Source: a virus (lineage: Duplodnaviria; Heunggongvirae; Uroviricota; Caudoviricetes). From it: 20,580 nucleotides of DNA. The notes below the pieces were generated by a model, which worked only from the letters and a program-made list of their open reading frames with translations, was not told the DNA's origin and did not search any database. Each line of letters begins with the position of its first letter. The first letter of the stretch is position 1. Where the stretch lies: positions 1 to 20,580 of the IMG/VR virus record IMGVR_UViG_2737471827_000003. One strand, 5' to 3'. Below, piece by piece: positions 1,907-15,841 of the stretch. The position numbers and the translations under genes were made by a program.

Positions 1907-3478
1907 TTACTGAGAGCTCAGATCAACTTTCCAGGGCAACAGATCGCGTACCCGGTTTGCCGGCCAGTCCTGGATATGTTCAATGACGTAACGCAGCCAC
2001 TTTTCTGGCTCCACATTGTTCAGACGGCATGTGCCGATCAGCGAGTACAACACCGCCGCATGTTCACCACCGCTGTCGGAACCCGCGAACATCCAGTTTT
2101 TCCGGCCTACGGCCACTCCCCGTAAGGCGTTCTCTGCGATGTTGTTGTCGATTTCCACCCAGCCATTACTGCAGTACACGTTCAGTGCATCCCACTGTTT
2201 CAGCAGGTATGCGAACGCTTTTGCCGTATCTGAGTGACGCGACAGTGTTTTCATCTGTTGCTGTATCCAGTCATACAGTGACTGCATCAGTGGCGCGGCT
2301 CTGGCTTTTCTTGCCGCCAGACGCTGTTCTGCTGAACAGCCCCGGACCTCTGCCTCGATGGCATACAGTTCACCGATACGCTGCAGGGCTTCCGTGGTGA
2401 TGTAGGTGGACGCTCTTGCATGCACATCGTGGATTTTTCTCCGGGCATGAGCCATACACGCGGCTTCCGTTATTCTGCCGGATTCGTATAACGCCCGGTA
2501 ACCACCGTAAGCATCGGCCTGAAGCACACCGCTGTAACCGGCCAGGTGATTTTGTGGATGGATACCTTTCCGGTCCGGACTGTACGCGAACCAGACCGCC
2601 GGGGGCATCTGTGAACCGGCGTTACGGTCATCACGGACGTAGACCCACAGCCGGGCTGTCCGGGTTTTACCGCTGCCCGGCTCCTGGACCGGGACGGGGA
2701 TATCATCAGCATGGACTTTACCGGGCATCAGCACATACTGGCGCAGGACGTCATACAGCGGCTCCAGCAGTTCAGCAACAGCACCTGTCCAGCGCCCCAG
2801 TGTGGCACGGCTCAGCTCCACTCCCTGACGACGGTATATTTCTGACTGGCGGTATAACGGCAGATGGTCTGCATATTTCCCGGTGACAACATGGGCCAGA
2901 AGCCCCGCTCCGGCATAACTGCGTGCAATGGGTTTTGAAGGTACTGGTGCCTGCACGATATGGTCGCACCGGCAACAGGCCTGTTTCGGACGTTGTGTTT
3001 CGATAACCTTAAAGGCGCTGCTGATAAGCTCCAGTTGCTCTGACACATCACATCCCAGAGAACTGAGTTCACCACCACAGGCAGGACAGCATTCCTCTTC
3101 CGGCCGGATAACCCGGGTTTCACGGGGAAGTGAGGCCGGTAACGGTTTACGGGCTGAAGACTGGCGCAGGGCGGATGGCAGTACCGGGTCATATTGCTCA
3201 CCCAGCGTTTCCGCCATTTCTTCCTGAAGTGCGCTGATTCGCTCCTGTGCTTCCTGTATCTGCCGTTCGGTTTTTGCACGAAGTTTTTCTGAGCTTTTAC
3301 CGAACTGCATACGTTGCAGTTTCGCAACCAGCGCCTTCAGCCGGTTGATTTCGGAAGCATAAGCCGCCACCCGCTGTGAGAGCAGGCGGTTGTATTCAGC
3401 CATCTGGCGGATGGTGTCCTGTTGCGTCTGCAACAGTGCCCGCAGGCGGGCGTTCTCATGAGCAAGTGAGGTGTCCAT
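1907..3478 (-). CDS. IS66-family transposase (third and largest ORF of the element)
   Basis: 523 aa with an N-terminal coiled-coil/leucine-zipper region, a CxxC...CxxC cluster, and a central/C-terminal region typical of IS66 TnpC-type transposases. Confidence 0.85.
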
Positions 3479-3497
3479 ATCCTCACTTTACAACGGG

Positions 3498-3845
3498 TTA
3501 TATGCGGATTCCAGCGCGTTCCGTTCGTTTCGGGTGCTTCCAGTTGATACCTTCAAGAAGCATGGATAACTGAGCCGGAGTAAGGTGCACCTTGCCGTCA
3601 CGGGTGACTGGCCAGACGAAGCGGCCCCGCTCCAGGCGTTTGGTGAAGAGGCACAGTCCGTCACTGTCAGCCCACAACACTTTTATCTGGTCACCCCGGC
3701 GTCCGCGGAAGATGAACAGGTGTCCGGAGAACGGGTCATCCTTCAGGACGTTCTGAACTTTTGATGCCAGGCCGTTAAAGCCATTTCGCATATCGGTGAT
3801 ACCTGCAACCAGCCAGATACGCGAACCTGCAGGGAGAGATATCAT
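3498..3845 (-). CDS. IS66-family accessory protein, Orf2/TnpB-like
   Basis: 115 aa, MISLPAGSRIWLVAGITDMRNGFNGLA...; conserved IS66 Orf2 signature; start overlaps the upstream ORF (ATGA). Confidence 0.85.
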   Translation of the reverse strand: MISLPAGSRIWLVAGITDMRNGFNGLASKVQNVLKDDPFSGHLFIFRGRRGDQIKVLWADSDGLCLFTKRLERGRFVWPVTRDGKVHLTPAQLSMLLEGINWKHPKRTERAGIRI

Positions 3846-4522
3846 CAGTGGCTGCTCCCTTTTATTTCGCGGATAAGTGTCTGTAATAACGCCGGCGTCA
3901 GTTTACCTTTAAGCCTGAGAGTTCCGGCCGGCAGAACCAGCTCACAACACAGACTGTCGGACGGTGTATTTATCTGCTCTGGTTCCTGTGCGGGGGCCGG
4001 GATTTTATTATCCGGCTCCGGCGTTAACGTCACGGGAAGCAGTGCCGGCATATTTTTTCCGGAAGGCAGCAGGCCACCTTTCCGGTATTGATGGCGCCAG
4101 TTGAAGAGCAGGTTATCGTTGATTCCGTTTTCCCGGGCGATCTGCGCCACACAGGCTCCGGGCTGCAGTGACTGCTCCACTAAGGCGATTTTAAACTCAT
4201 AAGGGAAGTTGGGCCGCCGGGGACGTTTTTTTACCACGGGGGCTTCGGATATAACGGTGCTTTCAGGACGTACGACTGGTACCGTGGAAAATTGTCCGTA
4301 AAGGCAGGCATCAAGTTCCTGCTCCGACATGCCTGCGGGCAAAGGCCACGAAAGGCCAGCTCTCCGAAAGCGCACGAACATACTACAAACTGTTGATTTT
4401 GGTACACCCAGGCGACGCCCGGCCACAACCCGGGGTAAATGTTCTTCAAAGTGAAGACGTAAAGCTTCAGTGATCCAGGTCCGGTGTTTCATACGATAGT
4501 GTCCATTAAAAATGATGGACAT
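3845..4522 (-). CDS. IS66-family accessory protein, Orf1/TnpA-like, with an N-terminal HTH-like extension (true start uncertain)
   Basis: C-terminal part ...RRPNFPYEFKIALVEQSLQPGACVAQIARENGINDNLLFNWRHQYRKG resembles IS66 Orf1. The 225-aa longest ORF is longer than typical, so an internal start is possible. Confidence 0.65.
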   Translation of the reverse strand: MSIIFNGHYRMKHRTWITEALRLHFEEHLPRVVAGRRLGVPKSTVCSMFVRFRRAGLSWPLPAGMSEQELDACLYGQFSTVPVVRPESTVISEAPVVKKRPRRPNFPYEFKIALVEQSLQPGACVAQIARENGINDNLLFNWRHQYRKGGLLPSGKNMPALLPVTLTPEPDNKIPAPAQEPEQINTPSDSLCCELVLPAGTLRLKGKLTPALLQTLIREIKGSSH

Positions 4523-4583: not shown

Positions 4584-4659
4584 AGCTAAGGGTGATTTTT
4601 AACCAGGTGATTTTTGAATGCTTGCAACATTGATTTCGTAACGTTATTATCCTGCGCCC

Positions 4660-4735
4660 GGCCCTTTAGCTCAGAGGTGAGAGCGAGCGACTCATAATCG
4701 CCAGGTCGCTGGTTCAAATCCAGCAAGGGCCACCA
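4660..4735 (+). tRNA. tRNA-Ile2-like (anticodon CAU, presumably lysidine-modified; formally Met by anticodon)
   Basis: Cloverleaf folded by hand: acceptor GGCCCTT/AAGGGCC, anticodon loop CTCATAA, T-loop TTCAAAT, encoded CCA. Overall strongly resembles E. coli ileX-type tRNA (recalled from memory). Confidence 0.75.
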
Positions 4736-4736
4736 A

Positions 4737-4813
4737 CCGCCACTAGCTCATCAGGAAAGAGCGTCAACCCTTTAAGTTGAGTGTGCGAGGTTCGAGTCCC
4801 CGGTGGCGGTCCA
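4737..4813 (+). tRNA. tRNA, isotype uncertain (anticodon loop CCUUUAA; nominal anticodon UUU, but C at position 33 is atypical)
   Basis: Acceptor CCGCCAC/GTGGCGG, D-stem GCTC/GAGC, anticodon stem TCAAC/GTTGA, T-loop TTCGAGT, encoded CCA; 77 nt. One A:C mismatch in the T-stem. Confidence 0.6.
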
Positions 4814-4815
4814 GT

Positions 4816-4891
<76 letters not shown>

Positions 4892-4894
4892 TAT

Positions 4895-4969
<75 letters not shown>

Positions 4970-5100: not shown

Positions 5101-5176
5101 GCACTCTGCTTTTATTCCGATTAACTGTGGGTGGTTTGTTGGATAGAGTGCTTCCCTTTCTGTATATATCGTTTCG

Positions 5177-5200
5177 CCCGCTTTTGCGGGTTTTTCTTTT
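5177..5200 (+). terminator. Rho-independent terminator-like hairpin upstream of the holin gene
   Basis: Stem CCCGC, loop TTTT, stem GCGGG, followed by TTTTTCTTTT. Confidence 0.6.
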
Positions 5201-5260: not shown

Positions 5261-5476
5261 ATGAAATCCATGGACAAAATTTCAACGGGCATTGCCTATG
5301 GCACCTCCGCAGGCAGTGCTGGCTACTGGTTTTTACAGTGGCTTGATCAGGTCAGTCCGTCACAGTGGGCTGCGATTGGTGTGCTGGGGAGTCTGGTTCT
5401 GGGCTTCCTGACTTATCTGACAAATCTGTACTTCAAAATCAGAGAAGACAAGCGTAAGGCTGCACGGGGAGAGTAA
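5261..5476 (+). CDS. S: Class II holin (pinholin), phage 21 S-like, with dual-start motif M1-K-S-M4
   Basis: 71 aa [30 protein letters not shown]...[35 protein letters not shown], close to the phage 21 S holin as recalled; two transmembrane segments; preceded by GGAGG. Confidence 0.9.
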
Positions 5477-15167: not shown

Positions 15168-15539
15168 ATGGAAAAAGATTTAAAAACGCTGGCGCTGTCA
15201 ACGATGGCGGGGTTTCGTCATAAGACAGTGGTGGTACCGGAATGGGACGGCGCTACGGTAGTGCTGAGGGAGCCGTCAACTGAAGCCTGGCTACGCTGGC
15301 AGGAGATAGTCAGACAGGAAAAGGGGGAAACGCAGTTGTCCGTTTCGGTACGGGCCCGCCGGGATCTGGAAGCCGATGTTGAGTTGTTCATTGATGTTTT
15401 GTGCGATACCGGGATGAAAAAGGTATTTTCTGCGGGTGATCGGGAACAGGTACTGGCAGTGTATGGTCCTGTGCATACGCGACTATTGCGGCAGGCGCTG
15501 GAGCTGGTTACTGATGCCGGTGAGGTTAAAAAAAAATAG
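15168..15539 (+). CDS. Tail assembly chaperone (lambda G-like)
   Basis: 123 aa ending GEVKKK-stop on an A9 tract; followed by a T-like ORF in the -1 frame. Confidence 0.8.
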   Translation: MEKDLKTLALSTMAGFRHKTVVVPEWDGATVVLREPSTEAWLRWQEIVRQEKGETQLSVSVRARRDLEADVELFIDVLCDTGMKKVFSAGDREQVLAVYGPVHTRLLRQALELVTDAGEVKKK

Positions 15540-15841
15540 CCATGCCGGGGATGCGTTTTCTGATGATGCTGGCGCTCAGGATGGGGCGCACATTGTCAGA
15601 GTTACGCCGGGAAATGTCCGCATCAGAAATCATGATGTGGGCAGAATTTGACAGGTTCAGCCCGCTGGGAGACGAACGGGCTGATATCCGGGCTGCCCAG
15701 ATTGTTTCAGCTGTTTACGGTGCGCAGGGGGTCAAAGTGCCACTGAATGATGCGCTTCTTCAGTGGGAGAAGGAGCAGACAGAAGGCACCTCAGATCCAT
15801 TTGCCGGACTGGAAAATGCGCTTTTAACCGTATCTCAGTGA
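15168..15841 (+). CDS. Tail assembly chaperone fusion (GT-like), produced by a programmed -1 ribosomal frameshift on the A9 slippery tract (15528-15536)
   Basis: The -1 frame (15542..15841 in the ORF track) is open upstream to 15530, inside the A-run. A slip after the codon at 15531-15533 reads KKIAMPGMRF... in continuity. Confidence 0.7.

Follow-up and report, generated by a model that had tools for sequence, protein, structure and literature searches.

Can a transfer RNA (tRNA) gene still serve its phage when the U at position 33 of the anticodon loop has been replaced, and when its anticodon and its body belong to different families? This question is raised by a locus in a 20,580-nucleotide stretch of viral DNA (the window; IMG/VR virus record IMGVR_UViG_2737471827_000003, Caudoviricetes). 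The tRNA gene at 4737-4813 on the plus strand combines a body of the argN lineage of Stx phages with the lysine anticodon UUU and a C at position 33. An earlier note, made by reading the sequence, had pointed to this loop and had suggested a diverged or decaying arginine tRNA, a tRNA with altered decoding, or a pseudogene. The analysis described here finds a real, intact-looking tRNA gene, and the C33-UUU observation holds. As to its role, the reading that is tentatively favoured, at somewhat less than an even chance, is that of an intact and dispensable Lys-decoding tRNA on a foreign body, which may act as a nuclease-proof spare.

Structure of the gene and its relation to argN

ARAGORN calls a tRNA-Lys(ttt) of 77 nucleotides at exactly 4737-4813 (+). 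In the Rfam covariance model (CM) search, RF00005 matches 4737-4810 over model positions 1-71 with 44.4 bits (E = 1.1e-6). The gathering score of this family is 29 bits, and the class threshold is passed with a full-length cloverleaf, in agreement with ARAGORN. Reads from this tRNA would span the stretch CAACCCUUUAAGUUG. Identity to an annotated functional tRNA, which the earlier note would have taken as a refutation, was found only as the automatic tRNA-Lys call of RefSeq (PGAP), and this does not clearly amount to it.

The acceptor stem consists of seven Watson-Crick pairs, from C1-G72 to C7-G66, and is followed by U73 and an encoded CCA. In the CM alignment the D stem (GCUC/GAGC) closes a 9-nucleotide D-loop with G18, G19 and A20. 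The anticodon arm spans 4764-4780. Its stem, U27-C-A-A-C31 with G39-U-U-G-A43 (4764-4768 and 4776-4780), forms five Watson-Crick pairs around a 7-nucleotide loop of C32 (4769), C33 (4770), U34-U36 (4771-4773), A37 and A38, which ends at 4775. The T arm (4786-4802, CGAGG-UUCGAGU-CCCCG) contains the A:C mismatch already seen in the earlier note, A51:C63 (4788:4800), and cmscan marks it as non-standard. In total, 20 of the 21 stem pairs are Watson-Crick. U8, A14, G18-G19, G53-T54-T55-C56, a purine at 37, the 7-nucleotide loop and CCA are all in place, and the U33 of the U-turn is replaced by the C at 4770.

The same cloverleaf, with the loop CCUUUAA, C33 and a nominal UUU anticodon, is obtained from the CM alignment and from ARAGORN, as the earlier note had drawn it. 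The Rfam covariance model keeps the C33 loop and yields no fold with a standard U33, which the note had named as a refutation. Direct reading of the sequence also gives no other register of the loop with U33. A one-base slide of the stem destroys its pairing, and therefore C33 is not a register artefact; an alternative loop register or a stop-reading UUA anticodon is ruled out on the same ground.

The gene carries the U34-U35-U36 of a tRNA-Lys(UUU) and is named accordingly by PGAP. It does not have A73 or descent from the tRNA-Lys family, since position 73 is U (4810) and the body derives from argN. With E. coli tRNA-Lys(UUU) (the lysT/lysV family), which has U33, A73, G1-C72 and the stem GUUGA/UCAAU, it shares UUU, C32, A37 and A38 without any specific sequence relationship.

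Its 44.4 bits contrast with 65-74 bits for the three neighbours in the array, although all four genes lie above the Rfam tRNA threshold. The homologue argN, which has the canonical U33, scores 43.0 bits. Because this U33-bearing tRNA scores equally low, the low score is a property of the body and not of C33. The minimum free energy (MFE) structure is not the cloverleaf, which lies 2.7 kcal/mol above it; the corresponding gap is 1.3 kcal/mol for the thrU copy of the array and 6.4 kcal/mol for argN. The cloverleaf is thus predicted to be energetically competitive. As the genuine thrU copy also lacks a cloverleaf MFE, such folding says little about the earlier statement that the gene folds well.

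The closest relative is the argN of the Stx phages, as found in the ileZ-argN-argO array of Stx2a_F349 (AP012530). The two tRNAs are identical at 65 of 77 nucleotides (84%). In position, too, the gene in the window corresponds to argN, as the earlier note had proposed: it lies downstream of Q and is the next gene after an ileZ-type tRNA. Both tRNAs have C1-G72, U73, A20, the T arm with A51:C63 and a low Rfam score. By alignment, the gene is a true homologue of argN and a member of its lineage, which bears out the suggestion of a diverged Arg-type tRNA.

The differences are concentrated in the anticodon arm: six of the twelve fall within its 17 nucleotides, and the remaining six are spread over 60 positions (Fisher p = 0.02). 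In the loop they are U33C, C35U and G36U, turning C-U33-UCG-A-A into C-C33-UUU-A-A. In the stem, UCAGC/GCUGG has become UCAAC/GUUGA. Here, the pair G30:C40 is replaced by A30:U40, a compensatory change, and G43A turns U27:G43 into a Watson-Crick U-A. G3:U70 and U7:G66 of the F349 argN are both Watson-Crick in the window gene, and every stem pair is kept. The arginine anticodon UCG, with its C35, is present in all three argN alleles examined, whereas the window gene has UUU and U35. These alleles differ by up to 6 nucleotides elsewhere and all keep UCAGC-CUUCGAA-GCUGG. In addition, argN (UCG) was found in about 390 further genomes.

The A51:C63 mismatch, which the earlier note mentioned beside a possible decay, does not indicate decay here. 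It is also present in the argN of Stx2a_F349 (other alleles have G51:C63 or G51:U63) and is inherited. Moreover, CM alignment marks a non-standard T-stem pair, A52:C62, in the array thrU copy as well; since that copy is identical to the host gene, a lone T-stem mismatch is not evidence of decay.

In the IMG/VR scans with loop-degenerate patterns, no intermediate between the argN and the Lys-like anticodon arms was found. Neither a U33-UUU version nor another anticodon was seen on this body in these scans, the matches being unrelated tRNAs, mostly Gly(UCC). Judged from these sequences, the family has two discrete anticodon-arm states without intermediates. The gene is best filed as a phage tRNA of the argN lineage in which remodelling has produced a Lys anticodon preceded by C33. 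Accessory phage tRNAs whose anticodon arms deviate are a class already known, and the gene belongs to it.

Two further observations were made on the argN loci. G3:U70, the classical identity element of the alanyl-tRNA synthetase, occurs in the F349 argN (L002:3132-3208) and in the Lys-like alleles of phage Evi and PPompW; in the window allele, as in the argN alleles of O111, this pair is G3-C70. Just downstream of stx2B in Stx2a_F349 (L002:4706-4917) lies a match to the Rfam small RNA STnc100 (158.5 bits), which is unrelated to the tRNA.

The anticodon arm and the tRNA nucleases

Host tRNA-Lys is attacked by several phage-defence nucleases. AriB of the PARIS system cleaves E. coli tRNA-Lys(UUU), followed by Thr(UGU) and Asn(GUU), at U36AAUC|A41, between positions 40 and 41 (PMC12409363, PMC11464382). 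With the change U39A, tRNA-Lys(UUU) is no longer cut by AriB (PMC12409363), and a T5 tRNA-Lys variant escapes AriB and rescues infection from PARIS (PMC12409363, PMC11464382). PrrC cuts tRNA-Lys 3' of U33 (PMC2610378), and phage tRNA-Lys genes were shown to rescue from a PrrC system (PMC11555353). For P2-OLD (cut 40|41) the determinant is a paired CNG motif at 28-30/40-42, with tRNA-Lys(UUU) as a secondary target (PMC12445682). The tRNAs that rescue from P2-OLD alter this motif, including by a 30:40 swap, and shorten the stem (PMC12445682). Phage 21, which is closely related to lambda, encodes a Thr(UGU) tRNA that rescues from P2-OLD, and host thrU gives little or no protection (PMC12445682). 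These published rescue tRNAs act by replacement and not by competitive protection (PMC12445682).

When compared with these motifs, the window tRNA lacks the published AriB and P2-OLD features and has C33 at the PrrC cut site. Its positions 36-41 read UAAGUU, against UAAUC|A in the host tRNA. CNG is absent both at 28-30 and at 40-42, where the gene has CAA/UUG; in argN the same positions are CAG/CUG, which is CNG on both strands. At the scissile nucleotide of PrrC (33), C replaces U. Its UUU anticodon is that of the host tRNA-Lys targeted by PrrC and AriB, as a rescue tRNA would need.

Two published systems are similar. The T5 tRNA-Lys(UUU) (Burman 2024; Belukhina 2025) is likewise phage-encoded, carries UUU and deviates from the host U39-C40-A41. 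In T5 these positions include A39 and C41, whereas the window gene has G39-U40-U41. The T5 tRNA is by published description a tRNA-Lys variant, and its resistance and rescue are experimental. The window gene has an Arg-derived body and C33, belongs to a temperate prophage and is known from its sequence. The tRNA-Thr(UGU) of phage 21 (Govande 2025) is likewise a tRNA from a lambda relative whose anticodon stem has moved off the CNG motif. The resistance of a related rescue tRNA involves a 30:40 substitution, and the window tRNA is also altered at 30:40. The phage 21 tRNA is a different isoacceptor, however. In the window, the Thr gene is host-identical and sensitive, and only the Lys-like gene is remodelled.

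The favoured reading can be laid out as a series of steps. The anticodon arm of argN (UCG) would have been remodelled by C35U, G36U, U33C and the replacement of G30:C40 by A30:U40. Transcription of the gene, along with the three other tRNAs of the array, would start in the late-promoter region, and RNase P and 3' trimming would free the tRNA, the spacers being 1-3 nucleotides long and CCA being encoded. The lysyl-tRNA synthetase (LysRS) would then charge it, and it would read AAA and AAG. The LysRS of E. coli recognizes its tRNA chiefly by U34-U35-U36. For this reason Lys charging would be expected, and a UUU anticodon on a foreign body is plausible as a Lys decoder that nucleases do not see. 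Both the body and the anticodon arm are foreign to host tRNA-Lys and therefore lack what the known tRNA-Lys-directed defence nucleases need. Once the host tRNA-Lys is destroyed, such a spare may keep the Lys codons readable. Its function would be conditional and dispensable, which would account for frequent loss. The structure, ancestry and distribution of the gene and its lack of the published motifs are shown directly by the sequences; expression, charging, decoding and nuclease resistance are what we infer here.

AAA and AAG are common codons served by abundant, multi-copy host tRNA-Lys, and simple supply of Lys tRNA is for that reason a poor rationale for the gene. The neighbours in the array, by contrast, read the rare codons AUA, ACA and GGA. 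A more specific proposal is that a temperate lambdoid phage moved UUU onto its resident argN, that the A30:U40 and G39-U40-U41 stem escapes the OLD-family Toprim tRNases (AriB and P2-OLD), that C33 blocks PrrC, and that the approximately 4% of phage tRNAs with C33 mark a general escape from anticodon-loop nucleases. In this full form the proposal is regarded as rather doubtful.

Distribution, decay and competing explanations

Of 5426 complete E. coli genomes, 798 (15%) carry the Lys-like family. In a scan of GTDB species representatives its T arm was found only in E. coli and Shigella flexneri. Exact-match searches place the window allele in 279 genomes, where RefSeq labels it tRNA-Lys. An allele with a deleted T12 (D stem) and C70T occurs in 222 genomes, and the C4T/T8C/C11T allele (U8C) in 171. 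These two D-arm-damaged alleles make up 393 of the 798 genomes, about half of the family copies. Their acceptor and T arms are intact, and they are not detected by the Rfam tRNA model at E up to 0.5, whereas the neighbours in the examined loci score 55-74 bits. PGAP annotates these neighbours and skips the damaged alleles. At least three independent damaged lineages can be distinguished. The decay suspected in the earlier note is a fair account of the two sister alleles; the window allele, with 20 of 21 pairs Watson-Crick and a CM score not below that of argN, has kept its structural integrity and conserved core, and decay is not supported for it.

Three array contexts of the gene were found: with Thr and Gly, as in the window; beside an Arg(UCU) of the argO type, the D arm being intact, in phage Evi; and with Arg(UCU) and the deleted T12, in PPompW prophages. 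The intact form is also present in the phage genome records vB_EcoM-606R7, vB_EcoS-689R5 and PhiR47_1. C33-UUU-A37-A38 is invariant in 113 IMG/VR copies, in the three array contexts and in the phage records 606R7, PhiR47_1 and Evi. Position 32 is variable (C, U or A) in three of the 113 IMG/VR contigs. The records of 606R7 (ON470580) and 689R5 annotate only the three neighbouring tRNAs, and RefSeq/PGAP calls the same 77 nucleotides tRNA-Lys. RefSeq uses this label in hundreds of genomes but leaves two near-identical alleles unannotated. The annotation pipelines thus disagree, and E. coli tRNA-Lys gene counts are therefore inconsistent. In a literature search, no paper was found on this tRNA or on ileZ/argN/argO.

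C33 is less exceptional than it seems. Among 2560 distinct bystander tRNAs, called by ARAGORN on about 540 IMG/VR contigs of uncultured viruses, 4.1% have C33, across many anticodons. The near-universality of U33, on which the earlier note had relied, thus holds for phage genes only with a qualification. When IMG/VR was scanned for CCTTTAA with a T loop behind it, by a pattern that excludes the E. coli family, at least 56 C33 tRNA-Lys(UUU) genes confirmed by ARAGORN were obtained. They share the CCUUUAA loop with the window gene, are not homologous to it and stand on at least 45-48 distinct, unrelated bodies. In a small unbiased sample, 3 of 17 Lys tRNAs had C33. The C33 tRNAs of IMG/VR lie mostly in large arrays of uncultured phages, with anticodons for Asn, Met, Val, Ile, Ser and others. 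Of the 65 C33 tRNAs in 18 contigs, 20 score at least 57.6 bits, compared with 130 of 262 U33 tRNAs. C33 is a recurrent and tolerated trait of phage tRNAs generally, and the gene in the window is atypical but not unique.

Within IMG/VR the C33 rate looks higher (10-12%) for Ile(GAU), Ser(UGA), Val(UAC) and Glu(CUC), and no C33 was seen among the bystander tRNAs for Met(CAU), Trp, His and Ser(GCU). In seven contigs there are two Lys(UUU) genes whose bodies are unrelated; six of these contigs pair U33 with C33, and one (L239) has two C33 genes. Duplicated C33 Asn(GUU) genes are present in several contigs, with scores of up to 69 bits.

Several points weigh against the idea of a nuclease-proof spare. 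C33 shows no Lys enrichment, being present in 3.3% of the Lys(UUU) bystander tRNAs against 4.1% overall, and a Lys scan of IMG/VR allowing any base at 33 returned 86 U33 and no C33 genes. Equivalent C33 scans confirmed at least 97 Met(CAU) and at least 110 Asn(GUU) genes. Together, these results rule out C33 as a convergent adaptation specific to Lys(UUU). C33 made no difference to the unrelated gamma-toxin, and the literature search found no study in which C33 was tested against PrrC. The missing AriB and OLD motifs are largely a by-product that any non-Lys body would show, and a random compensatory change would touch a CNG-relevant pair about 2 in 5 times. U73 (Lys identity favours A73), A51:C63 and C33 should each lower translational efficiency. 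The Thr and Gly neighbours are host-identical, hence not resistant variants; the whole array as a nuclease-evasion kit is ruled out, as the two genes are 100% identical to thrU and glyT. About half of the family copies are damaged in the D arm, and the gene has been repeatedly lost without visible cost.

Nor could selection on the gene be shown. Covariation was compared with shuffles. Among 16 alleles, one pair changed on both sides, which was reached in 130 of 500 shuffles; among five divergent alleles, two pairs did so, reached in 348 of 500. Neither comparison has power to show selection, and the polymorphism spectrum has none either. In 108 loci, the distinct mutations of the Lys-like gene comprise 4 stem-breaking, 4 stem-keeping and 6 unpaired changes, similar to those of Thr, Gly and Ile. 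The damaged alleles stand at high frequency despite this neighbour-like spectrum.

The strongest competitor, which is a serious contender though we would not call it probable, holds that the gene is translationally inert, a copy of argN that is kept as a slowly eroding, tRNA-shaped spacer between useful tRNAs. C35U would have destroyed recognition by the arginyl-tRNA synthetase (ArgRS), so that Arg identity was lost and more loop changes followed, while the fold of the acceptor and T arms would still offer RNase P a place to cut, by which the Ile tRNA upstream obtains a free 3' end. Separation of polycistronic tRNAs by RNase P is well established, and the tight spacing makes such a fold useful whatever the tRNA decodes. 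The D-arm lesions in half of the E. coli copies, unannotated and invisible to Rfam beside intact acceptor arms, T arms and neighbours, fit this explanation well, as do the three or more independent damaged lineages and the omission of the gene by the annotators of two phage genomes. U33 is gone, A51:C63 is mismatched, the discriminator is U73, and the codons in question are not rare. On the other hand, the window allele has no structural lesion, and the changes in its anticodon arm fit together, one pair being compensatory, and then stayed fixed in all lineages. The polymorphism spectrum is no looser than that of the neighbours, and the allele is found in phage genome records.

The remaining explanations carry much less weight. 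An ordinary working tRNA-Lys with a role outside defence, such as the tuning of decoding, is improbable, as one weak extra gene would be negligible beside the multi-copy host tRNA-Lys. One such role would be at the tail assembly chaperone pair (15168-15841), which shows the signature of a programmed -1 frameshift. Its G-like open reading frame ends GTT AAA AAA AAA TAG, with the A-run at 15528-15536, and the T-like frame lies at -1; once the ribosome has slipped, the new frame begins with the codon AUA, which is read by the first tRNA of the array. The related phage phi467, however, shares this chaperone module, in which A AAA AAG TAG stands at the corresponding place, and has no Lys-like tRNA. 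There is accordingly no obligate link, and a connection between the tRNA and the frameshift is not supported. A decoy, by which is meant a tRNA-like RNA that is charged poorly or not at all, takes no part in translation, and binds and titrates a tRNA-Lys nuclease or another tRNA-binding defence factor, would make sense of a UUU loop on a tRNA-like fold with an altered PrrC cut position. Titration would need very high levels, and the replacement mode of the published rescue tRNAs points elsewhere, so that a decoy seems a slightly poorer prospect still. The idea that the tRNA accepts Arg and inserts it at Lys codons, or reads codons other than AAA and AAG, is barely credible. A20 and C35 are the major ArgRS determinants; A20 is retained, but C35 is now U. 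Proteome-wide Lys-to-Arg misreading would be harmful and fits poorly with presence in 15% of genomes, and the lack of an alternative loop register argues against the reading of other codons.

The tRNA array and the meaning of the gene

ARAGORN finds four closely packed tRNA genes on the plus strand: an Ile-type tRNA(CAU), the Lys-like gene, Thr(UGU) and Gly(UCC). The ileZ-type tRNA(CAU) at 4660-4735 (ARAGORN and Rfam; tRNA-Ile in PGAP) is separated from the Lys-like gene by 1 nucleotide. Its position 16 is A instead of the T found in 105 of 116 related copies, and it still scores 70.6 bits. Downstream, after a 2-nucleotide spacer, tRNA-Thr(UGU) at 4816-4891 (+) is 100% identical to thrU of E. 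coli K-12, and tRNA-Gly(UCC) at 4895-4969 (+; ARAGORN and Rfam) is 100% identical to K-12 glyT. These two genes are 3 nucleotides apart, without tyrU, and by sequence the pair looks as if the prophage array had captured it from the host. Among the array Thr(UGU) copies, some (L054, L007 and two more loci of IMG/VR) have G42C/U43C or G42U/U43C, by which 27:43 and 28:42 lose their pairing and the 3' CNG is removed (CAG to CAC or CAU). The same kind of change, with a shorter stem and an altered CNG, has been reported in P2-OLD-resistant phage tRNA-Thr.

The array belongs to a lambdoid prophage and lies in its late region. Genes for DUF968, RusA and the Q antiterminator (1047-1742, +; Pfam PF06323, E = 2.3e-91) are found upstream, and it is Q that defines this context. 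Downstream, a phage-21-type holin gene (5261-5476) precedes the lysis genes, which are followed by HNH, terminase, portal, capsid and tail genes. A consensus match to a sigma-70-like promoter, TTGCAA-17-TATTAT (4622-4650, +), ends 10 nucleotides ahead of the first tRNA and is possibly a late, pR'-like promoter. Between the array and the holin gene, a hairpin with a T-run (5173-5200, +), likewise a consensus match, is possibly a tR'-like terminator, and the overall layout would then resemble pR'...tR'. An IS66-family element is inserted between Q and the array at 1907-4522 on the minus strand (tnpA-like 3845-4522, tnpB 3498-3845, DDE transposase 1907-3478). The otherwise identical locus of E. 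coli TUM2826 (NZ_CP128947), a lysogen with the window allele of the Lys-like gene, is free of it, and there Q ends about 210 nucleotides ahead of the first tRNA.

The gene is common, already annotated automatically and often decayed, and the proposal made for it is a specific one that could be tested at little cost. As a relic, the gene would represent an ordinary case of accessory-gene erosion in prophages. If it is functional, the switch of an Arg body to a Lys anticodon would be a quick route to nuclease resistance, and the change of U33 to C would gain a concrete role. Counter-defence by replacement tRNAs would then extend beyond virulent phages such as T5, for which it has mainly been shown, and the one tRNA of phage 21 to common prophages of E. 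coli.

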